Positions 12,982 through 39,353 are shown, counted from the stretch's first letter. The stretch is DNA of 64,000 bases from Glaciimonas sp. (GCA_012927585.1 JABBOY010000026.1:7408-71407); one strand, 5' to 3'. The notes: generated by a model not told the origin, from the letters alone. Numbers and translations are program-made.

Positions 12982-13830
12982 ATGCCAGCTATTTCGATCA
13001 TTCAGCCTGCAGCATTCGATCGCACCGTTTTTTTTGTCTCTGACGGCACCGGAATTACTGCCGAGGCTTTCGGCCATGCGGTGCTGACACAGTTCAATCT
13101 ACGCTTCAAGCAGGTTCGCTTGCCCTTCATTGACGACCTCGACAAGGCGCATTACGCCGCGGCCAAAATCAATGAAACCTTTGAGCAGGAAGGCATGCCA
13201 CCAATCATTTTCTCTACGCTAGTCAAGGAAGATCTTTCACAGATTATTCGCAATACCAAATGCATGTATATGGACTTGATCCAGACCTTCGTCGGTCCGC
13301 TGGAACAGGAACTGGGGATCAAATCGACCCACACCATCGGTCGTGGTCAGGACATTGCTAATTCAGAAGCATACAAAAACCGTATTGAAGCGATCAATTT
13401 TTCGCTGATCCACGATGACGGGCAGTCGCACAAGAACCTGTCCAGCGCCGACGTGATCCTGGTCGGCGTATCGCGCTCGGGAAAAACCCCGACCAGCCTG
13501 TTTCTGGCGATGCAATACGGCATCAAGTCAGCGAACTATCCGCTGATACCGGAAGATTTTGAGCGCGGCAAAATGCCTTCGGCCTTGCTGAAGTATAAAT
13601 CCAAGATTTTTGGCCTGAGCATTACGCCGGAACGCTTATGCGTAATCCGCAACGAGCGGCTCCCTGGCAGCAAGTATGCAGCCTTGGAAAACTGCCGCTT
13701 TGAGGTCAACGAGGCAGAGGCGATGATGAAACGGGAGGGAATACATTGGTTGTCCTCCACCACAAAATCGATAGAAGAAATCTCCAGCACAATTTTGCAG
13801 GAACTAAAACTAGAAAAGCGGGTGTACTGA
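12982..13830 (+). CDS. ppsR: PEP synthase regulatory kinase/pyrophosphorylase
   Basis: FFVSDGTGITAE, HDDG, GVSRSGKTPTS; divergent from ppsA. Confidence 0.93.
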   Translation: MPAISIIQPAAFDRTVFFVSDGTGITAEAFGHAVLTQFNLRFKQVRLPFIDDLDKAHYAAAKINETFEQEGMPPIIFSTLVKEDLSQIIRNTKCMYMDLIQTFVGPLEQELGIKSTHTIGRGQDIANSEAYKNRIEAINFSLIHDDGQSHKNLSSADVILVGVSRSGKTPTSLFLAMQYGIKSANYPLIPEDFERGKMPSALLKYKSKIFGLSITPERLCVIRNERLPGSKYAALENCRFEVNEAEAMMKREGIHWLSSTTKSIEEISSTILQELKLEKRVY

Positions 13831-13862
13831 GGAATTCAGAACTGACGAAAATATTGTTTTTA

Positions 13863-13916
13863 GTAGTGCAGGCCTCCGTGCCTGCGGCACGGCGCAGGCA
13901 CGGAGGCCTGCACTAC
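13863..13916. repeat. GTAG-type REP doublet (REPIN), family A
   Basis: Perfect 24-bp inverted repeat GTAGTGCAGGCCTCCGTGCCTGCG-N6-CGCAGGCACGGAGGCCTGCACTAC; each arm has an internal GCAGGC/GCCTGC palindrome. Confidence 0.8.
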
Positions 13917-13930
13917 CTGGACTCGGAGAG

Positions 13931-14713
13931 TTAGCGTCTTTGCCTGACTTGCTCAAAAAAACAGACTGCCGCACTAGCCGCCACATTCAGGGATTCCATC
14001 AGACCGAGGTGCGGAATCCCGACCTGGTGCGTGGTCAGCGTCATCAGTTGATCGGAAATTCCTTGCCCTTCGTGGCCGAACAACCAGGCCACAGGTTGCT
14101 GTAAATCGATATCGTAAATGGCGGCTTCTGCATGGGAACTGGTCGCCAGAACAGGTATGCCGGCAGATTGCAATAACAGCACCAGATCAACATCCTCGGC
14201 GATACGCAGGTGAAAGTGCGCGCCCATACCCGCCCGCAATACCTTTGGCGACCAAGCGAAGGCGGTGCCGGCGCTGCAAAAAACGTCAGTGATGCCTGCG
14301 GCAGCCGCGCTACGCAAAATCGAGCCGAGATTACCCGGGTCTTGCAATCGGTCCAGCAGCACAGCGTTGCCGGACAAACGCAATAGCGCGTCTTGTGCCG
14401 GAGTATCGACCACAAACAGCAGGCCAATGCCATGTTCGACCTGGCTAATAGCTCTGAAAAGTGCATCCGGCAGCAAAATGCATTGCGCTCCACCTTCTTC
14501 GCAGCGTTGCAGGATCGGCGTAACTTCGTGTTGCGACACTGCGCTATCGCTGACAATGCACAAGGGCGGAGCGCCGACTTGATCAAGATAAACTTCGCAC
14601 AAATGGATGCCGTCCAACAATGTGCGTTGCGTCTTGCGCCGGGCTTGCGAACTGGTCGCCAGCTGTTTGAGTTCCTTGTAAAGCGGGTTGTCGCGCGAAG
14701 AAATCGGTTTCAT
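13931..14713 (-). CDS. TrmH/SpoU-family RNA methyltransferase
   Basis: [37 protein letters not shown] motifs. Confidence 0.9.
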
Positions 14714-15336
14714 GGCTGCTCCACAACCAGCAATGCGCGCACCGGCGCATACGATTTGCGATGCACCGGCGACACCCCGTGTTCGCGTAACCGGGCCAGA
14801 TGCAAGGCAGTCGGATAACCTTTGTGCTGGTCAAAGGCATATTGCGGAAATTGCTGATGCAGTGCGAGCAATGCTGCGTCACGCGCAGTTTTGGCCAGAA
14901 TCGAGGCGGCCGAAATGGCCGGCACCTTGTCGTCGCCTTTGATAATCGCTTCACAACGCAAGGTCATTTCAGGACAGCGATTGCCATCGATCAGCGCCAG
15001 CGTCGGCTGGGTCGAAAGCCCTTCGACCGCACGGCGCATCGCCAGCATTGTGGCTTGCAAAATATTCAGGCGATCGATTTCCTCCTCGGAGCACTGGGCA
15101 ATCGACCAGACCAGCGCACGCTGCCTGATCTGGAGTGCCAGCACCTCGCGCTGCGCCGCCGTCAGTTTCTTTGAATCGCGCAAGCCTTCGATCGGCCGGG
15201 TCGGATCGAGAATGACGGCGGCGGCGAATACCGGCCCCGCCAGCGGTCCCCGCCCGGCTTCATCGACACCACACATCAACGTGTTATCCAGTTCAATCGA
15301 CAACAGGAATTGTTCCAATTTTTCCATGCTGATCAC
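14710..15336 (-). CDS. rnhB: Ribonuclease HII
   Basis: [34 protein letters not shown]. Confidence 0.96.
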
Positions 15337-30332: not shown

Positions 30333-30483
30333 ATCGGACTTGATGCGGCAGTGCCTGAATACTGTTCAAACGCCGCCAGCGCATCGGCCACATCAGCGGT
30401 GGACCGCCGCCCATATAGACCGCCATGCCCAGGGTTTCTTCGACTTCGGTGCGGGTTGCGCCGAGCTTTACCAGTGCCTGCCC
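30329..30483 (-). pseudogene. 3' remnant of a carboxymuconolactone decarboxylase (CMD/AhpD-like) gene
   Basis: Manual translation GQALVKLGATRTEVEETLGMAVYMGGGPPLM, then frameshift to ADALAAFEQYSGTAASSPI*; no 5' half. Confidence 0.75.
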
Positions 30484-30491
30484 GGCAAACT

Positions 30492-33293
30492 TTAACAGTG
30501 CAGATCAATCACATCCCGCACTCCGGCAGCATCTCCCACCACCACATCCCAGGCCCAGGTGCCAAAGCCACCATGCGCATTGACCGCTTCGACCCATTGA
30601 TCCAATGCTGCGCGCTTGGCTTGGTCTTGCGGTGAATCCACGCCTTTGATCTCCAGCACCAGCGTTTTTCCTGATGCATAGCGCATCAAAAAATCGGGGA
30701 TATATTTACGCTTGGAGCCATTCCACAGGTACAAGATGCTAAAGCCCAGGTGATCGTTCTTGGCCCACGCTGCCACTTTCGGGTGGGTCTCCGCAATATT
30801 CGCCGCGTATTTCTCCCAGCCACTGTCCACCACAATATGACTAATCTGCGAGTGCTGCGTTGGCTCGGCAATCCGGGTGGTGTACCAAATTCGCATGTCG
30901 CGGGTAGAGCCAATCGGTCGGTCGCCATCAAACACCGGCTCCAGCCGCTCCGTATTCTGCTCCATCACGTATTGCATCAGATGCTGGGTAATCAAGTCGA
31001 TGTGCAGCGAGAACAGAATGCGTTTGCGCAGCGGGTCCTGATGAAACAGCGAGGGGATGTCGATCTTGTTCGATGTCAGAAATTGTTCCACCAGCCGCAC
31101 CAGTTGGAACAGCAGATATTCCCGCTGGCCCTTGAACTGCTCCTGCAGCAAATCAAACGCACGCTGTGCTGCCTTGAATACCAGCCGCTGCAGGCGGAAC
31201 TCTTCAGGCAGTTTTTCCAGGTCGATGGTCCGAACCTGGCTCCAATCGGCCGCCCCGCCCAGCGCGGGCGCAATTTCAGCGCGGATGGCCATGCTTGCCG
31301 GGTTGATCACCAAAGGCGCCACCTTGCTCCAATCCACCACCAGTTGCGGGCGCACCACTTGATCCACGCGCAACACATTGGGCCATTTGATTTCATACAC
31401 GTTGCGCGCGCTCAGCGACTCCACCTGCGTGCTGGGCTTGGGTGGCGGCGGGCTCATGCCGCTCTCGCCTGGCCGCAGAGCAATGGACAGCGGCACGCCA
31501 AACACGTTGACAAATTCCGGCACATACAAGCCCTGTTCATCCATGTCATAGGAAACGCGGCGCAGTCCCCGACCAATCACCTGCTCACACAAAAGCTGAC
31601 TGGTGAAAGCGCGCAGCCCCATGATGTGCGTCACATTCTTGGCATCCCAGCCTTCCGACAGCATGGCAACCGACACCACGTTTTGCAGGTCTTGTCCGGC
31701 CTGGTCGCGCTTGCCGACGGTGTCGACCAACTCGCGCAGCAACTGTTCTTTCTTCATGCCGCGCAGAGTTTCTTTGCGCGTCTCCGGGATGCGGGCGGCC
31801 TCCACAATCTGGCGCAGCCGCAGTTCGTAATCCTTGTCGGCAGTGGCGGTTTCGCCAAGCTCGGCCTTCTCCAGCACCTTGGAATCGACCCGAAAAGTTC
31901 TGGCGGGATAGTGCAATTCCGGCCAGTGGGCATAGCCCTTGGTGAAGAAATGCTCTACGCGGGCCGCAGTCTCAGTGCGGTTGCACACCGTCAGCATCAC
32001 AGGCGGTGATTGGTGACCTGCCTCTTTCCAGCTTTTTGCCGTTGCAAGCCAATCCGCGCCCAGCAGGGTGTAAGCCTGCTGCACCAGTGCTGGCAAAGCC
32101 TCATGGGCTTCGGCCTTGCGGTTCAAATCTTCGGCCACCTCCGGCTCGCGATACAAGTGATACAGCTTGGGGCGCAACGTCTGCGCATTCGGCATGGCAT
32201 CGTCGCGCACCACCACACGCGGGGTTTTGACCAACCCCGACTCAATAGCATCATTCAGACCGAAATCGGACACCACCCAAGTGAACAGTCCGGCCTCCGT
32301 ATTGGTGCGCCCGGTCGGAGCGAACGGCGTGGCCGACAAATCAAAACAGCGGGCAATCCGACGTGTCTTGTGGATGCGGTCCAGCCCCTCCACCCAACGG
32401 GTCGCTTCATCCAGGTCTATCCCCAGCGCCTCGGCTTCCGCCTTGCTGATCTTCACATCGGCCGGTGTGCGATAGGCATGGTGCGCCTCATCGTTTATGA
32501 CCAAAATATCTTTGTGGATTGCCAGCTTGCCCAACACCCTCCTGGTGAAAGCTTCATCGCTTTCAAAACCTTTTTTCACCACAGAACGGTCTTGCGCCTT
32601 GAGCGGCATCAATGTGTGCCAGTTCTCGATCAGGATATCGGCCCGGTTCAGGTTTTGCCGCATGGCCTCGGATGGGCACAGCACAAAGCTGTCGTAGTAA
32701 TTGGCTTCATGGCCGGGCATCAGAACTTGCAGCCGGTCTTTGACGGTCAGGCCCGGCGCCACCAGAAACACCGCACTGGAATACTTGCGCGGCGATTTTG
32801 GGTAGGTCAGCGCATTCAGCACTTGCCAGGTGATGATCATGGCCATCACGGTCGTTTTGCCGCTGCCGGTGGCCATCTTGTTGCACAGCCGCTCAAACGC
32901 ACCGCCGTCGCCCTGCACGCTGATGCCCTGACGGTATTCCGCCTGCGCTTCTGTGTACCAAATCAAGGTTTCAATCGCTTCGAGCTGGCAGAAGTAAAAC
33001 GGATACTGCCGCCCGGACACGCGCTCAAGATCCCACCAGTGATCCAGCAACTCATTGGTGACCGCCGTCACGCCGGGCCAGCCGTCCGCGCGCCACGCGG
33101 CCACCCGTTGGCGAATGTCGTCCACCAGCGGAATCGACACCTTGCGCCGGGTATTCTCGCGCGTGTCTATAATTTCGTAGCCGGCCGGGCGACGCGTGCC
33201 CACCAGACGCAGCGTGCGGTCGGTGTTCTCGGCCCAGTGGCGCTGCGGCTCGATGAAAGGCGAGTTGATGATCAGAGAAGTAGGAGCGGTCAT
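30492..33293 (-). CDS. res: Type III-like restriction helicase-nuclease (Res; BPTD_3080-like)
   Basis: SF2 motifs KMATGSGKT, DEAH, LSATP, SEGWD, EQVIGRGLRR; C-terminal YIPDF...LEIKG PD-(D/E)xK. Confidence 0.88.
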   Translation of the reverse strand: MTAPTSLIINSPFIEPQRHWAENTDRTLRLVGTRRPAGYEIIDTRENTRRKVSIPLVDDIRQRVAAWRADGWPGVTAVTNELLDHWWDLERVSGRQYPFYFCQLEAIETLIWYTEAQAEYRQGISVQGDGGAFERLCNKMATGSGKTTVMAMIITWQVLNALTYPKSPRKYSSAVFLVAPGLTVKDRLQVLMPGHEANYYDSFVLCPSEAMRQNLNRADILIENWHTLMPLKAQDRSVVKKGFESDEAFTRRVLGKLAIHKDILVINDEAHHAYRTPADVKISKAEAEALGIDLDEATRWVEGLDRIHKTRRIARCFDLSATPFAPTGRTNTEAGLFTWVVSDFGLNDAIESGLVKTPRVVVRDDAMPNAQTLRPKLYHLYREPEVAEDLNRKAEAHEALPALVQQAYTLLGADWLATAKSWKEAGHQSPPVMLTVCNRTETAARVEHFFTKGYAHWPELHYPARTFRVDSKVLEKAELGETATADKDYELRLRQIVEAARIPETRKETLRGMKKEQLLRELVDTVGKRDQAGQDLQNVVSVAMLSEGWDAKNVTHIMGLRAFTSQLLCEQVIGRGLRRVSYDMDEQGLYVPEFVNVFGVPLSIALRPGESGMSPPPPKPSTQVESLSARNVYEIKWPNVLRVDQVVRPQLVVDWSKVAPLVINPASMAIRAEIAPALGGAADWSQVRTIDLEKLPEEFRLQRLVFKAAQRAFDLLQEQFKGQREYLLFQLVRLVEQFLTSNKIDIPSLFHQDPLRKRILFSLHIDLITQHLMQYVMEQNTERLEPVFDGDRPIGSTRDMRIWYTTRIAEPTQHSQISHIVVDSGWEKYAANIAETHPKVAAWAKNDHLGFSILYLWNGSKRKYIPDFLMRYASGKTLVLEIKGVDSPQDQAKRAALDQWVEAVNAHGGFGTWAWDVVVGDAAGVRDVIDLHC

Positions 33294-33847
33294 GCGTGCG
33301 TCAATTCCTGGATACTGCGCATCAAGACCCGAAAACTGTTTGACTTGTTTTGGGTCAGGTCGAGATGGGGCGCAATTTTGCGGGCGCCCTCACGCTTTTG
33401 ATAGGTTGGAATCAGTCGTCTGATTTCCGCCGAAGGACTGCCCAACAGGTCAGGCACACGGTATTTGGCGCGGTTAGCGTTCGCAGCAAGTGCGGGGCGC
33501 TCGAAACCGGCTGCGACGGCAGGCCAATCCCCAACGAAGAAACTTTCGAGTTCCTTGCACACGACTCTCACGACGGCGTCAGGCTGTCCAGCCTGGACAC
33601 ACAAGTCGCGCAAACGTGCCTTGATCACCACGCAGTCCCCGCTATCTTGATCCCGCATTACAATAAAATAGCTATTCGGACGCAGCCAGCGTTTCATGCG
33701 CAGGACCAATCGCTTTTCCAAATCCTGCTTGCCCTCGAAAACCAAAAAATGCGGTGTGATATGCGCAGGCAGCACCCGGGGCAAGACTGCCTGCAGAAAA
33801 TCCTGGGCAGAAGGCTCTTCCAAAAAAAATACCAGATGCTCGATCAC
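33290..33847 (-). CDS. DUF4276-family TOPRIM-like protein
   Basis: GTG start overlapping ATPase stop (GTGA); LVFFLEEPSA, VMRDQDSGDC (DxD), ELESFFVGD. Confidence 0.78.
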   Translation of the reverse strand: MIEHLVFFLEEPSAQDFLQAVLPRVLPAHITPHFLVFEGKQDLEKRLVLRMKRWLRPNSYFIVMRDQDSGDCVVIKARLRDLCVQAGQPDAVVRVVCKELESFFVGDWPAVAAGFERPALAANANRAKYRVPDLLGSPSAEIRRLIPTYQKREGARKIAPHLDLTQNKSNSFRVLMRSIQELTHA

Positions 33848-35037
33848 GGATTGGCTCCCGCAAACAAGCCCTGTTTCCACAAATAGCCCATTTGGTCGCC
33901 CTCAGCCATATAGACCTTGAGCTGTTCGTCATCCCGTGCGCGATGTGCGGTGGTGTAACCGTCTTCCTTGACCAGCCAGAACACCTCATCGAGCCCCACT
34001 GCGTTCAAAAAGTCGGGTGAATGTGTGGTGACAAAAACCTGTCCGCCACGCTGCGCATAAGAGCGGAACTCCTCGGCCAAATCCCATAGCAAAGACGGAT
34101 AAAGCTGATTTTCAGGCTCCTCGACGCACAGCAGTGGGTGCGGCGCAGGATCAAACAGCAACACCAAATAGGCCAGCATCTTGATAGTACCGTCGGAAAC
34201 ATAGCGCGCCAAAAAAGGGTCCTCAAACGCGCCATCCTGAAATTTCAAAAGTACACGGCCTTCTTCAGTCGTTTTCGCCTCTACCTTGGTGACTCCCGGC
34301 ACGCGAGACTGTAGCCGACTAAGAATGTCCGTGAATATTTTATGATGATGATTGAACAGGTATTCCACCACCAGCGAGAGGTTTTCACCCTCGCGCGACA
34401 AGTGTTCTGCATAGCCCGCTTCCACCTCCGGGCGAGCCCGGCTAATGTGAAAGTCCGACAAATGCCAGTTTTCGATCAAATTTCCCAGCGCCACCACAGC
34501 GGGGAAACGCTCAAACTGCGCCAAACCCTTGATGGCAAGAATATCCGGGCTTTTGAGAGTTTGCTGTTCGCGCTTGAGATCCTTTTCGTCCTTAACAGAG
34601 TCAAGCTCATTGGTAACTGCTTCGCCTACGCCATTGGAAAAGTCAAGAAAATGCCAAGGTTGGCCCCGGCTACCGCGCCGGTATTTCAGAATTTCCCGGG
34701 CGACAACCGGGCGCCCCTTTAACTCGTCAATATGCAGCTCGTAGGTGATGAGTTGGCTGCGGCCACTCGACAACACCGTGCGCAGCTTGATTTCGATCTC
34801 AATCGGCCCGCTTGTGCCCCGGCTGCGTACCTCGTTCAAGCCGCGACTGCCACCCAGGCGCCCCAGTGCTGCGGTCAAGTTGGTCGTCATCGCGTCGCGC
34901 AAAAACGCAAACACCGAAAACAGTGTGCTCTTGCCGGTTCCGTTGGCCCCCACCAGCACGCAAAAGCGGGGAATATCGCGTAATGTCACATCCTTGAAGC
35001 TGCGAAAATTCTTCAGGCGTATGGCTTCGATTTGCAT
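33844..35037 (-). CDS. ABC-type (AAA_21-like) ATPase
   Basis: GANGTGKS Walker A, VSDGT signature, LCVEEPEN Walker B, VTTHSP H-loop; no TM segments. Confidence 0.88.
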   Translation of the reverse strand: MQIEAIRLKNFRSFKDVTLRDIPRFCVLVGANGTGKSTLFSVFAFLRDAMTTNLTAALGRLGGSRGLNEVRSRGTSGPIEIEIKLRTVLSSGRSQLITYELHIDELKGRPVVAREILKYRRGSRGQPWHFLDFSNGVGEAVTNELDSVKDEKDLKREQQTLKSPDILAIKGLAQFERFPAVVALGNLIENWHLSDFHISRARPEVEAGYAEHLSREGENLSLVVEYLFNHHHKIFTDILSRLQSRVPGVTKVEAKTTEEGRVLLKFQDGAFEDPFLARYVSDGTIKMLAYLVLLFDPAPHPLLCVEEPENQLYPSLLWDLAEEFRSYAQRGGQVFVTTHSPDFLNAVGLDEVFWLVKEDGYTTAHRARDDEQLKVYMAEGDQMGYLWKQGLFAGANP

Positions 35038-35040
35038 GGT

Positions 35041-38000
35041 TCAGTTCTCCAGTCTCATAACCTTCAACGACTCAATCCCCCGGTCGTCCACAATCTTGAC
35101 TGCCACAGTATGGTTGGTGCCGGCTTCGAACGGCAGCGACACGGTGCCAACAAAGTGCGACAACAGGTCTTCGTCGAGTTCGGCGCGGATGTTCTTTTTC
35201 AGCTTCAGCCAGCCGCCGTCCTTGCCCGCCATCGGAAAGAAAACCTGGTGCGGAAACAGCGAGCGCCCGTCATAGTCGGTATCCAGCGACCAGGCGGCAA
35301 TCTTGCCTTTGCCGCCCGAGACCAGTTCGCCCTTGGCGGTATCGAAATAGTCGAAGCCATTGACCTCGACTTGCCACAGCCCGGCTTTGGTTTGCGACAA
35401 CAGCACATCGGGCTGTCCCATGAGCCAGAAACTCTGGTTGCTGGAACGCGCCTTTTTCAGATCTTCGGTCAGCATATCCGGGTTCATCTGCGCCTTCAGC
35501 GCGGTGATGCCTTTTAATGCATCGATATCCTTTGCTGCCTCCGGGTCAAACATGAAGGCGCAGAACACGATCATCTTGGGTAGCGGAAACAGTTCGCCCG
35601 CTTCGCGCAGCGCATGCTCGACCTGGCGCTGCTCCAATGCGCCGTGCTCCGGGCCGAAACTCACCACCACGCGTTCGCCACTGTCGAGGTGACCGCTGGC
35701 GTGCAGGCACGTAGTGCCGGGCAATACCTCCAACTCGGCAAATTTCAGCATCTGCCCGCCTTTGCCGCGGATGCCGGTTTTCAGCAATTCGTCGCGCCAG
35801 CCATGCTGCCGGCTGGTCGCGCCGCTGCGGGCAATGGCCAGATCGGCCGCCATCGCAGTGGGCGCCTGCGTCGCAGGCTGGTCCAGCGACAGCACGGTGG
35901 GGAAAGGCACCGCCTCCACCGTGAACGGGCCGGTAATGCGCAGCTTGTCTTTGGCCTTCTCCGGCTGGTCGTACAAGGTTTCGTTGTCGGCCTGCGCGGC
36001 GATCGAGCGATCCATCTCGGCTTGCATTTTCTGGCGCGCAGCGTGGAAACCGTCGAACGCTGCCCGGGCGCTGGCAGGCCAGTCGGGCGGGTAATCGAAC
36101 GGCACTTCCCACTCCAGCAGCGCCACGCCTTTGTTGCCGATTGCCAGCTTCTGGCCTTTGCGTGCGCCGTCAAGCACTGCAAGAGGCGCTGCGGGCGGCG
36201 CTGCTGCCAGTCCGGCGTTCAGCTTGGCCAGCGCGGCGTCGATGGCCGGATGCAGGCGTTCGTAAATTGCATCGATATCGGGATTGTTGGCGATGCTTTT
36301 GAGCGTGACGTGCGGCACGGTCTTGTAGATGAACCCGCCTTTCAAGCCTTCGTGCGGATAGCGCAGCGCGAAGTAATCGAAGCTGGCCGTCATCAGGCGC
36401 TGCTTGGCCAGCGTGATGGCGACGCGCGAAGTGTCGCAGGTGATCCAGCGCCGGCCCCATTTTTCGGCGACATAGGCGGTGGTGCCGCTGCCGCAGGTCG
36501 GGTCGAGCACCAGGTCGCCAGGGTCGGTGGTCATGAGCATGCAGCGTTCGATGACTTTTGTGGTTGTCTGAACAACGTACGACTTGTCTTGTTCAGCCGT
36601 TCCCATCGTGTCTGACCACAAGTTGCTCAAAACAAATGCGGGGAAGTCATCTACAAACATTTTGTAGTTGACGAATTCTTTGGTTAATACAAGCCGATTG
36701 CTCGCGATTAACCGGTTCATTCCCAACTTCCCAGTTTTCCACCCACCTTTACGGATTTGAATTGGGCGGCCCTTTAAGTTGAAATCGAAGGTTGTTGATT
36801 CGCTAGCAGTTTCTGAGGTTAGTGGACCTCCTAAAAAGGCCCGACAGTCCTTGGAAACGAGACCAGAGTCTTCCTTTTCCAGTTTGGACATTGCTCTCAC
36901 CCGGCCATCTGCTTCCTGAATTTGGTTGTATCTGGCACCGCCGCCGATTCCAAGTGCTTTTGGTAAGTAGAGTCGATTAAATTTTGCTTTTTGCTTGGAA
37001 CAGCAATACCAAACGACATAGTCGGATACGTTGTCAATAAATTGCTCGCCCATGCCACCGGTCTTCTTTGTGGTGATGACACTTAGAAAATTATCCGATC
37101 CAAAAATTTCATCTAGCATTTCCCGCACATGATGCAAGTTTTCATCCGAAATCTGCACAAACACGCTGCCGGTCTCACTCAACAAATCCTTCGCCAGCAA
37201 CAACCGGTCGCGCAGATACGTCAGATACGAGTGTATGCCCAGCTCCCAGGTGTCCCGAAACGCCTTGATCATTTCGGGTTCTTGCGTCAGGTCGGCATCG
37301 CTGCGGTCCTTGACGTCGCGCTTGTTGGTGAACGGCTGGAAATTGCTGCCGTACTTGATGCCATACGGCGGGTCGATGTAGATCATCTGCACCTGCCCGG
37401 CCATGCCTTCTTTTTGCAGCAGGCTGTTCATCACCAGCAGGCTGTCGCCGGCCACCAGGCGGTTGGCCCAGCCGCGGTCGTGCTTATAGAAATCCACTGC
37501 GGAGCGCAGCGGCAGGCTCTCGAACGGCGCTTCGAACAAGCTGGCCTGGAAGCCGCCGCTGGCGGCCTTGCCGTCTTTCTGGCTGCCCTGGCGCTTGCTC
37601 ACCGCCGACAGGATGCTCATAGCGTCGATGCGCTCGTGCACGTGCAGGCTGACGGTATCCACCTCGAAACTGGTGCGCTCGGCCTTGCCGCTCCACTGCA
37701 GATAGGGCGAGCCAAGGCGGCGCAACTGCTCCAGCGCGCTGCGCATGGCGGCGGGGTCGTCACCGGCCAGCGCGTCGTCGATCAGCTTTTCCGCTCCGGC
37801 ACGAGCCGAGTCAAACTGCAATGCCGGGTCCAGATGCGGGTCGTAATTCCAGACCGTCTTGGGCGTTTCGGGATCGCTGGCTTCGTTGACCAGGCCCACT
37901 TCAGGGTTGTTTTTGCGGCGCTCGGAATGGCGGTAACTCAGCACTTGCGGCTCGCCGGATGCGGCCTGCGGCGCTGCTCTGAGCTTGCGCGGCTTGGCTG

Positions 38001-38307
38001 CTGGCTTGCTTGCAAGTTGGCTTGCGAACAGGTCGGTCGTCGTGACTTCGGCTTTCAGCGCAAAGTCGGGCCTGGCCTCACCGGCAGCGCGCGCGGTGGA
38101 GCCGCCACGTCCCTTGCCCTTGATGATGCTGCCTGACGCCAAAAGAGCATCGCGGGCAATATGCAGCTCTTCCTCGGAGGCATCCACTCCATCAACGTTA
38201 CAGGCAAGTTGCAACAAGGATTTATTGCCGATGAATGAACAATCCTCTGGAAGCAGTTTTAAGATAATCGCTTGCAGCGCACGCTGACGAGTCTCGCCCA
38301 TGGTCAT
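35041..38307 (-). CDS. mod: Type III-like DNA adenine methyltransferase (Mod, beta class)
   Basis: YIDPPY motif IV precedes VLDPTCGSGTT motif I with a TRD between; start at 38307 or 38301. Confidence 0.9.
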   Translation of the reverse strand: MTMGETRQRALQAIILKLLPEDCSFIGNKSLLQLACNVDGVDASEEELHIARDALLASGSIIKGKGRGGSTARAAGEARPDFALKAEVTTTDLFASQLASKPAAKPRKLRAAPQAASGEPQVLSYRHSERRKNNPEVGLVNEASDPETPKTVWNYDPHLDPALQFDSARAGAEKLIDDALAGDDPAAMRSALEQLRRLGSPYLQWSGKAERTSFEVDTVSLHVHERIDAMSILSAVSKRQGSQKDGKAASGGFQASLFEAPFESLPLRSAVDFYKHDRGWANRLVAGDSLLVMNSLLQKEGMAGQVQMIYIDPPYGIKYGSNFQPFTNKRDVKDRSDADLTQEPEMIKAFRDTWELGIHSYLTYLRDRLLLAKDLLSETGSVFVQISDENLHHVREMLDEIFGSDNFLSVITTKKTGGMGEQFIDNVSDYVVWYCCSKQKAKFNRLYLPKALGIGGGARYNQIQEADGRVRAMSKLEKEDSGLVSKDCRAFLGGPLTSETASESTTFDFNLKGRPIQIRKGGWKTGKLGMNRLIASNRLVLTKEFVNYKMFVDDFPAFVLSNLWSDTMGTAEQDKSYVVQTTTKVIERCMLMTTDPGDLVLDPTCGSGTTAYVAEKWGRRWITCDTSRVAITLAKQRLMTASFDYFALRYPHEGLKGGFIYKTVPHVTLKSIANNPDIDAIYERLHPAIDAALAKLNAGLAAAPPAAPLAVLDGARKGQKLAIGNKGVALLEWEVPFDYPPDWPASARAAFDGFHAARQKMQAEMDRSIAAQADNETLYDQPEKAKDKLRITGPFTVEAVPFPTVLSLDQPATQAPTAMAADLAIARSGATSRQHGWRDELLKTGIRGKGGQMLKFAELEVLPGTTCLHASGHLDSGERVVVSFGPEHGALEQRQVEHALREAGELFPLPKMIVFCAFMFDPEAAKDIDALKGITALKAQMNPDMLTEDLKKARSSNQSFWLMGQPDVLLSQTKAGLWQVEVNGFDYFDTAKGELVSGGKGKIAAWSLDTDYDGRSLFPHQVFFPMAGKDGGWLKLKKNIRAELDEDLLSHFVGTVSLPFEAGTNHTVAVKIVDDRGIESLKVMRLEN

Positions 38308-38459
38308 TCCCTGAATAATGTATTGAACCCGAATTTCGGCAACGATGGTAACAGTCTCTGGCGGGGAAGTTGTCAAAAAATTTCCACTGTGCAAATAGCG
38401 TATTTTTAATCACACGCGTAACCAATGTTACGCAACGCATTATGGTAAAAAACAATGTC

Positions 38460-38663
38460 CACGAAATACACGAAAGGCACGAAAAAAATCGGATGCAAGC
38501 CGCAATTTTTGTCCGATCCAATTGCGCTGTCTTCAAAAAAAATACAGTATATTTTACCTACGCAATAAATATATGCGGAAAATGCCATAAAAATGACGAT
38601 ACTCCTCATTTTATGAAAAACACCGGAGTGTCAGGCCGGTTCGCGCTTTTCGTGTCTTTCGTG
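38460..38663. repeat. 204-bp element bounded by 24-bp inverted repeats built from 9-bp CACGAAA units
   Basis: CACGAAATACACGAAAGGCACGAA (38460-38483) vs reverse complement of 38640-38663 CACGAAAGACACGAAAAGCGCGAA: 21/24 identical. Confidence 0.75.
38547..38612 (-). repeat. AT-rich dispersed element copy 3
   Basis: Minus: AAAATGAGGA-GTAT-N20-CCGCAT-N22-ATAC. Confidence 0.7.
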
Positions 38664-38686
38664 AACCAGTGCGTAAGTTCGGCATC

Positions 38687-38770
38687 GTAGGTCGGGTTAG
38701 CGGCTTCATCGCGTAACCCGACATTTGCGGCTAAAAGAATGTCGGGTTACGCTACGCTAACCCAACCTAC
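38687..38770. repeat. GTAG-type REP doublet (REPIN), family B
   Basis: GTAGGTCGGGTTAGCG-N-CGTAACCCGAC plus inverted unit ending CCAACCTAC. Confidence 0.85.
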
Positions 38771-38792
38771 TAAAAACCGTTGCAATGTTTGT

Positions 38793-39353
38793 TCAGTCCA
38801 GCACGCAGAGCGCGCCGTAAGCGATTTGATGCGCGCTGCCGACTGCAACGGCAGCAATCTCTTCCAGCGACCGCTCTGACGAGCAAGCCAGCGACAGGCG
38901 AATGATGCCGGCATGGCAAAGCACGATTGCGGACTCAAACGGCAAGCGTGCCAGATCGGCATGGAAGGTGTGTACCCGTGTGATTACTTGCAGCACGCTT
39001 TCGCCGCCGCCGGGGCGGTAATGAATCAAATCTGCGGCCCAGGCGTCGATTTCATTGCGAGCGATTGCATCCCAGGAACGCATTTCCCAGCCGCCGAAAT
39101 CCATTTCCGCCAAACGCGCATCGAACTGTACTGCAGCGCCGCCGCGTGCTGCGGATAACTGCTGCGCCAGCGTCGCGCAACGCAATAAAGGGCTGCTGAA
39201 GATCGGTGTTGCCGGCGGCAACGCTTGCAGTTGCGGCAGCAATGCCGCCAGCGTTGTGGCTTGTTCCTGGACTGAAACCGTCAAGTCACTGCGGCCGTAG
39301 CACATTTCGGGCGCGACCTCAGGCCGAGGATGGCGGATCAGATAAATGCGCAT
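38793..39353 (-). CDS. cobC: Histidine phosphatase, alpha-ribazole phosphatase-like
   Basis: LIRHPRP, SSPLLRC, EMDFGGWE, GGES, CHAG; downstream of cobS. Confidence 0.82.
   Translation of the reverse strand: MRIYLIRHPRPEVAPEMCYGRSDLTVSVQEQATTLAALLPQLQALPPATPIFSSPLLRCATLAQQLSAARGGAAVQFDARLAEMDFGGWEMRSWDAIARNEIDAWAADLIHYRPGGGESVLQVITRVHTFHADLARLPFESAIVLCHAGIIRLSLACSSERSLEEIAAVAVGSAHQIAYGALCVLD

Follow-up and report, generated by a model that had tools for sequence, protein, structure and literature searches.

The locus described here is a four-gene operon in which a restriction-modification (RM) gene pair encloses an ABC ATPase gene and a DUF4276 gene. It lies in a 64,000-nucleotide stretch of DNA from Glaciimonas sp. 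(GCA_012927585.1, JABBOY010000026.1:7408-71407), which we call the window and from whose first letter all coordinates are counted. The four co-oriented genes occupy positions 30492-38307 of the minus strand, in the order mod, ABC ATPase, DUF4276, res. The mod gene (35041-38307) encodes a predicted Type III-like N6-adenine DNA methyltransferase of 1088 amino acids. Its start and stop were read from the sequence, the longest open reading frame being 35041-38394 and the likely ATG, preceded by AGGGA, being placed at 38307. Next come the ATPase gene (33844-35037, 397 amino acids, AAA_21/AAA_15) and the gene of a DUF4276 partner with a predicted TOPRIM fold (33290-33847, 185 amino acids). For the latter the longest open frame is 33290-33880, and the GTG at 33847 was preferred as the start, in agreement with the family models and the homologues. 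The last gene, res (30492-33293), encodes a 933 amino acid restriction endonuclease of the BPTD_3080 family.

The four genes are tightly coupled. Three nucleotides (acc) separate the TGA of mod from the ATG of the ATPase gene, the ATPase and DUF4276 genes overlap by the four nucleotides GTGA, and DUF4276 and res overlap by ATGA. The GC content is 58.6% for mod and 58.7% for res, compared to 54.3% for the ATPase gene and 54.7% for DUF4276; at third codon positions (GC3) it is 72% for both mod and res, compared to 63% and 61%. Gene order, strand, the three junctions and the lower GC content of the inner genes had all been reported in the original prediction, a short note made from the sequence of the window alone, and were confirmed, the overall GC being about 54% against 59% and the GC3 about 62% against 72%.

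The inner pair was assigned to HEC-01 by PADLOC, a check that the original prediction had suggested. The ATPase matched the HEC-01 model PDLC04144 over residues 1-397 (model positions 1-394 of 395, E 1.1e-200, 665 bits), as well as Pfam AAA_21 (E 1.7e-29). The DUF4276 protein matched the HEC-01 model PDLC04143 over its full length (E 2.6e-70) and Pfam DUF4276 (E 9e-13, 49 bits for a cut-off of 30.2). HEC-01 (Hma-embedded candidate 01, in PADLOC-DB v2) was defined by Payne et al. as a candidate system composed of an ATPase and a TOPRIM protein, embedded in Hma (helicase-methylase-ATPase) systems (bioRxiv 10.1101/2024.01.29.577857). The four-gene nesting, put forward as possibly uncharacterised, therefore contains an inner pair that is already catalogued; the original prediction had itself listed assignment to a described system among the findings that would count against it.

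The ATPase motifs are unvarying across 15 homologues, namely Walker A (GANGTGKST), the signature (SDGT), the H-loop (TTHS) and Walker B (hhhhEEPE). The full set of ABC motifs attributed to this protein is present, with a qualification for Walker B (LLCVEEPEN, region 34110-34130), in which a Glu replaces the usual Asp and is invariant in both HEC-01 subtypes examined. In the DUF4276 protein, E10 and D66-x-D68 are unvarying in 32 homologues of two subtypes, and they correspond to the conserved Glu after strand 1 and the DxD after strand 3 of TOPRIM domains. DUF4276 is a Toprim member and the family of Mad4 (PMC12065111). An AlphaFold2 model of the protein (pLDDT 95.3) has the three-layer alpha/beta fold. 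Its sole significant PDB matches in Foldseek were the TOPRIM-containing C-terminal regions of the OLD proteins 6NK8 and 6NJV (probability 1.00, TM 0.50-0.57, E 2e-4 to 9e-4). Description of the pair as an ABC ATPase with a partner carrying TOPRIM-like E and DxD residues was thus borne out by the PADLOC and Pfam matches, the invariant residues and the OLD-like predicted fold. A PDB search with the sequences left the DUF4276 protein unmatched, gave weak generic ABC matches only for the ATPase, and returned no MAD3 or MAD4 entry. Because of the conserved ATPase motifs, the invariant E and DxD residues and the OLD match of the predicted structure, we conclude that the pair is, as far as sequence and modelling indicate, a split OLD-type ATPase and TOPRIM nuclease.

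Both inner genes are under purifying selection, with a ratio of nonsynonymous to synonymous divergence (dN/dS) of about 0.03-0.05 in the closest pairs, where it is measurable; dS is saturated elsewhere. The dN of the DUF4276 gene was about 3 fold that of the ATPase gene in every comparison (0.13 against 0.04; 0.38 against 0.16; comparisons with loci L036, L039, L070 and L151-L154, synonymous sites being saturated).

The outer genes form a predicted, intact Type III-like RM pair, as had been proposed from the sequence. Mod matched Pfam N6_N4_Mtase (E 1.5e-30) and the PADLOC MTase_III model PDLC03632 (E 3.7e-169), and its PDB matches were the Type III Mod subunits 6K0W and EcoP15I 4ZCF. Its DPPY motif lies N-terminal to the FxGxG-like DPTCGSGTT, which is the beta-class order (motif IV, then motif I). 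Res scored 1138.5 bits against NCBIfam NF046055, the BPTD_3080 family (cut-off 800), residues 6-930 of 933 being aligned to positions 3-967 of 970 in the model. It also matched Pfam ResIII, and its translation contains the superfamily 2 (SF2) helicase motifs GSGKT, DEAH, SAT and QxxGRGxR followed by a C-terminal PD...ExK nuclease motif. The PADLOC REase_III models matched a short stretch of it (46 bits), and no PDB chain was matched in a sequence search. A literature search on BPTD_3080 found no paper; plasmid-borne Res homologues are labelled 'BPTD_3080 family' or 'type III restriction endonuclease subunit R'. Judging from these families, Mod would methylate host DNA, and Res would cut unmethylated incoming DNA by means of its ATP-dependent SF2 helicase and PD-ExK nuclease. 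Membership of mod and res in the Hma systems was considered and rejected, as PADLOC gave no Hma match: Res matches only its REase_III models, and the top 25 Mod matches are RM methyltransferases or mad2. A second, distantly related Type III-like res is found elsewhere in the genome (contig C28, about 13690-15240, open frame of 1040 amino acids).

The occurrence of HEC-01 apart from mod and res was examined in 400 sampled genomes of the phylum. Besides the window's own genome, 49 contained ATPase homologues, and the best 29 loci were taken on. The DUF4276 gene followed the ATPase gene in these best 29 loci (ATPase 57-75% identical), and in none of the 29 genomes was a mod or res of an NF046055-type pair found within 1.5 kb of HEC-01. 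Twenty pairs were inspected (ATPase 57-73% identical to that of the window). The neighbour families listed for them were varied and of housekeeping type (GGDEF, MCP, radical SAM, AceK, ACC and others), no family matched more than 2 members, and no RM or defence family was present among the 25 families listed.

The four closest relatives of the window pair (ATPase 85-94% identical) were L151 to L154. The order mod, pair, res of the window is retained in L152, where res is internally deleted and HEC-01 intact. The metagenomic locus L151 (3554-9534) has a mod split by HNH_2 and MazG-like genes and a res lacking residues 111-716 or so; its HEC-01 is again intact, with an ATPase 94% identical to that of the window. 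In the last two, HEC-01 is intact and stands without mod or res, adjoining a Wadjet system in L153 and SDR genes in L154. The evidence says that HEC-01 is not tied to mod and res.

What lies between mod and res in relatives of the RM pair was surveyed as well, as the original prediction had also suggested. One genome per species was scanned, yielding 80 loci with a Res 66-87% identical to that of the window; a Type III-type Mod co-occurs with res in 76 of them. These 76 contained both the mod 3′ end and res, and the addition of L004, which is on a cut contig, and of the window gave 78 loci (77 related loci and the window). The slot was called empty when mod lay within 60 bp or less of res, and cargo was identified with Pfam and PADLOC. 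By this measure 45 slots were empty and 33 occupied; inserts of 0.27-2.1 kb separated mod from res in 31 of the 76 loci. HEC-01 of the window's type (subtype A) was found in 8 loci. Another 8 held a subtype B of HEC-01 (PDLC04180/04194), whose ATPase shares about 29% identity with that of A. PDC-M56 occupied 4 loci, PD-T4-4 2 loci, and Schlafen AlbA_2/HATPase_c_4 genes 2 loci. Toxin-antitoxin modules were present in 5 loci (ParE with an antitoxin in 3, VapBC in 1, MqsRA with a SecB-like chaperone in 1), and the remaining 4 held RhuM-Fic, DUF2442, DUF1828 with DUF5131, and DUF6978 with DUF1828. ABC-ATPase pairs account for two thirds of the cargo. All cargo is co-oriented with mod and res, and leaves no more than a few bases to the mod stop on one side and to the res start on the other.

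Occupancy is unevenly distributed on the Res tree. A 38-member, mainly alphaproteobacterial clade has an empty slot in 37 of 38 loci, compared to 32 filled slots in the 40 other loci, which belong to beta-, gamma- and deltaproteobacterial lineages. In the Res clade of the window, 14 of the 18 members have an occupied slot, and all 14 hold ABC-ATPase two-gene modules. At least 25 changes of cargo type are required on the tree. Sister loci with res DNA 94-95% identical can carry unrelated cargo (L004 and L011; L013 and L014); in both pairs homology is lost at the mod stop codon and regained at most 10 bp from the res start, so that the breakpoints coincide with the gene boundaries. No repeats or att-like motif were seen at the mod-stop and res-start junctions of about 30 loci, and comparison of the Mod C-terminal tail with the cargo type gave no pattern of covariation. 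Distant NF046055 members on plasmids have the arrangements mod-DUF3800-res (Thermus) and res-hypothetical-mod (Methylomagnum). We conclude that defence genes and toxin-antitoxin modules are swapped in and out at the mod-res junction.

Two side observations were made in the course of this survey. In L007 (9144-10001), mod and res are intact, but the cassette between them is half decayed: an ATPase 89% identical to that of the window is kept, and the DUF4276 gene has given way to a small GIY-YIG gene with short repeats on either side. The plasmid loci L155, L156 and L157, distant members of NF046055, include res-mod as well as mod-res arrangements, and some of them have embedded or trailing genes (DUF3800, a 173 amino acid hypothetical protein, a 3′-5′ exonuclease, and CBASS directly downstream).

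The genomic setting of the operon was analysed by comparison with related genomes. None of the 5 genomes of the same genus carries the Res gene, and neither do the 19 sampled genomes of the same family (Oxalobacteraceae), save for one weak fragmentary match. In the same-genus genome G004, a membrane-protein gene and cobC are 956 bp apart, and the interval holds an intact 120 amino acid CMD/AhpD-like gene and a PaaI-type thioesterase gene. The window has the island in place of this stretch, with only the four genes between the host genes. At the left junction (30333-30491, minus strand) lies a frameshifted 3′ remnant of the CMD/AhpD-like gene, cut 10 bp from the res stop codon; the remnant itself spans 30333-30481, homology to G004 ends at 30481, and the 5′ two-thirds were lost to the island. 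In a same-genus genome both genes are intact, the CMD gene at 1523-1885 of L097 and the PaaI-type thioesterase gene at 2133-2543. Upstream of mod, an AT-rich leader (38308-38530, minus strand), mostly single-copy in the genome over its first 220 bp or so (1-6 copies), is the putative promoter region. A scan for the sigma-70 consensus found no match in it, and a promoter and terminator scan revealed nothing convincing inside the operon; from their spacing, the four genes are presumed to be co-transcribed. Between the leader and cobC, host dispersed repeats (38531-38793, no strand assigned), REP/REPIN-like with an AT-rich element, are present in 9-35 copies in the genome. Inverted repeats are visible in this stack, which includes the REP-like hairpin GGGTTAGCGTAGCGTAACCC. 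The comparison indicates that the locus, about 8 kb long, is an island gained by horizontal transfer, which replaced two host genes.

The analysis shows the identities of the genes, their coupling, a variable slot, and HEC-01 loci that lack mod and res. From these we favour, with a probability of about 70%, the reading that an autonomous HEC-01 cassette is nested in an intact Type III-like RM operon at a cargo-exchange slot. The operon would then hold two nested systems, the outer RM and the inner HEC-01. On this reading HEC-01 sits where it does because defence and toxin-antitoxin cargo is exchanged at the mod-res junction. An autonomous module is favoured since HEC-01 occurs without mod and res, stays intact beside decayed mod or res, and is exchanged freely with other cargo, and since a representative of HEC-01 is reported to protect E. 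coli B on its own against one or more of the phages T4, T5 and T7 (PMC12881386). Cargo at the slot would be co-transcribed and translationally coupled, and transferred along with the RM genes.

As to mechanism, MAD3-MAD4 forms a 2:2 heterotetramer with ATPase activity and Mg/Mn-dependent DNA nicking and cleavage, and its toxicity needs both proteins to be co-expressed (PMC13662399). By analogy, the inner ATPase and DUF4276 protein would probably assemble 2:2, and the ATPase would stabilise and gate a nuclease that requires metal and becomes toxic once released. HEC-01 would most likely act independently, as a second line of defence that responds to a trigger of its own, the outcome being abortive infection or a direct attack on nucleic acids; trigger, substrate and abortive outcome are all inferred.

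Several points weigh against this reading. The HEC-01 tested by Payne et al. gave no protection (10.1101/2024.01.29.577857), and the HEC-01 members assayed lie outside the exact subtype PDLC04144/04143. In the Res clade of the window, the bias of the filled slots (14 of 18) towards ABC-ATPase modules (14 of 14) could mean a functional link to the RM instead of hitch-hiking alone. Tight translational coupling is also what would be expected of an integrated system. Finally, the nuclease might act on DNA like MAD3-MAD4 or on tRNA like PARIS.

The same clade bias and coupling are what one would expect if HEC-01 were a dedicated guard of the RM, as the original prediction proposed. It would then be a fail-safe that is masked by Mod/Res and released upon their inhibition, like PrrC, or a sensor of anti-restriction proteins, like PARIS. 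ABC-ATPase guards of RM systems are established in these two cases (PMC12707154, PMC11464382), and Payne et al. raise a backup role of embedded ABC-ATPase systems for the surrounding system. We nevertheless consider this unlikely. The pair is intact without mod and res in L153 and L154 and beside a deleted res or mod in L151 and L152, and its homologues in 29 other genomes have no such mod or res within 1.5 kb; masking by Mod/Res in the manner of PrrC therefore fits poorly. Cargo is swapped between near-identical RM backbones, toxin-antitoxin pairs and Fic share the slot, and one HEC-01 member defends alone (PMC12881386). PADLOC found neither an AriB/DUF4435 nor a PrrC nuclease signature in the inner pair, the small protein being HEC-01 in PADLOC and DUF4276 in Pfam. 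A guard role of HEC-01 for the RM is thus not favoured. A PARIS-style role, in which anti-restriction proteins are sensed without contact with Mod/Res, may still be compatible with these results.

Somewhat more doubtful is a broader form of the idea, in which the junction in the NF046055 family would be more than a permissive sink: selection would favour it as a place where ABC-ATPase effector pairs (HEC-01, PDC-M56, PD-T4-4) dock, all of them fail-safes that fire when phage proteins block Mod/Res. If true, the slot would be to Type III systems what PrrC is to EcoprrI, except that the guards could be exchanged.

It is rather improbable that HEC-01 is a selfish hitch-hiker or addiction module, that is, a toxin-antitoxin-like cassette lodged in a permissive junction and linked to a selected RM, with no real anti-phage benefit. 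The slot does carry classical toxin-antitoxin modules (ParE, VapBC, MqsRA with its SecB-like chaperone), MAD3-MAD4 is toxic upon co-expression, and Payne et al., who saw no defence by HEC-01, discuss a 'genomic sink'. Yet a HEC-01 member protected E. coli B, the slot also hosts validated defence systems, PD-T4-4 among them, and both genes are under strong purifying selection across saturated synonymous divergence.

Finally, that the pair provides an extra nuclease arm as integral subunits of a methylation-based four-gene system is very improbable: MADS does join a methyltransferase to a required ATPase/DUF4276 module (PMC13662399), the ATPase is similar to the PADLOC mad3 model over its full length (E 2.4e-23) and the four genes form one coupled operon, but the ATPase scores 115 bits against the MAD3 equivalog NF047739 (cut-off 420), Res has its own PD-ExK nuclease, the inner pair is 10 GC3 points off mod and res, the slot cargo is interchangeable with unrelated genes, and the pair is dispensable to the RM family because mod directly abuts res in 45 of the 78 loci.

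With the autonomous HEC-01 cassette as the preferred reading, the locus adds a clear new case to a known phenomenon and does not represent a new system. The core finding is not new, because both the inner pair and the nesting of defence genes inside defence operons are published (Payne et al., 10.1101/2024.01.29.577857). The host systems in which that study analysed embedded genes do not include the NF046055 RM family, and we found no description of this host family and its occupancy pattern in the literature searched. The locus and its relatives add a well-populated example of nesting in an RM family outside those host systems, with a Res that matches the PADLOC Type III models only weakly. 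They also add a sharp contrast in occupancy (37 of 38 slots empty in one clade, 32 of 40 filled elsewhere), and cargo swaps between backbones with res DNA about 95% identical. These relatives constitute a natural, isogenic-like set for asking what embedding means functionally, whether guarding, co-regulation or mere linkage. The intact four-gene operon would allow HEC-01 to be compared with and without its neighbours.

Among known systems, the outer pair resembles Type III RM of the EcoP15I kind in its mod-then-res order, its beta-class N6-adenine Mod, and its Res made of an SF2 helicase with a C-terminal PD-ExK nuclease; the window Mod is, however, far longer (1088 against about 645 amino acids). 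For the inner pair, the original prediction had offered PrrC and PARIS as analogies, and we judge them right for thinking about it. PrrC in the Type IC system EcoprrI is likewise an ABC-ATPase-based effector nested in an RM operon. It is nonetheless one protein chain that includes an anticodon-nuclease domain and lies inside a Type I hsd locus; the RM complex masks it, and it is almost always found embedded, whereas HEC-01 consists of two proteins, one a TOPRIM partner, has a Type III-like host here, and often has no mod or res nearby. PARIS (AriA with the DUF4435 protein AriB) shares with the window pair an ABC ATPase and a separate TOPRIM nuclease of the OLD-like superfamily, and possibly a mode of action in which the sensor releases the nuclease (PMC11464382). 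Unlike AriB, the window partner is DUF4276 and not DUF4435. The ATPase has 397 amino acids against about 464, and its similarity to AriA is confined to the generic AAA_21 core, AriA models scoring 76-100 bits on it (HEC-01, 665) and the PDB AriA giving an E of 0.003.

Class 2 OLD nucleases (Burkholderia pseudomallei 6NK8, Xanthomonas campestris 6NJV) resemble the pair in having a TOPRIM domain with a helical C-terminal region and an ABC ATPase partner, and differ in fusing ATPase and TOPRIM in one chain, where the window has separate genes. HEC-01 itself has the same adjacent, co-oriented ABC ATPase and TOPRIM-like DUF4276 genes, nested in another defence operon; as first defined it had another host, the host system of the window being an NF046055-family Type III-like Mod/Res. 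MADS of Pseudomonas aeruginosa also combines a split ATPase and DUF4276/TOPRIM pair, MAD3-MAD4, with a methyltransferase-containing locus (PMC13662399). It comprises eight genes (mad1-mad8), and its module is required for defence (PMC13662399), whereas the system around the window pair is, in most relatives, a working unit of two genes. The four genes of the window locus do not include the other MADS traits (eight-gene operon, second ATPase module, kinase), and in PADLOC the DUF4276 protein matched HEC-01 models only. MAD3-MAD4 is the closest characterised relative of the window pair, and the sole one with biochemistry.

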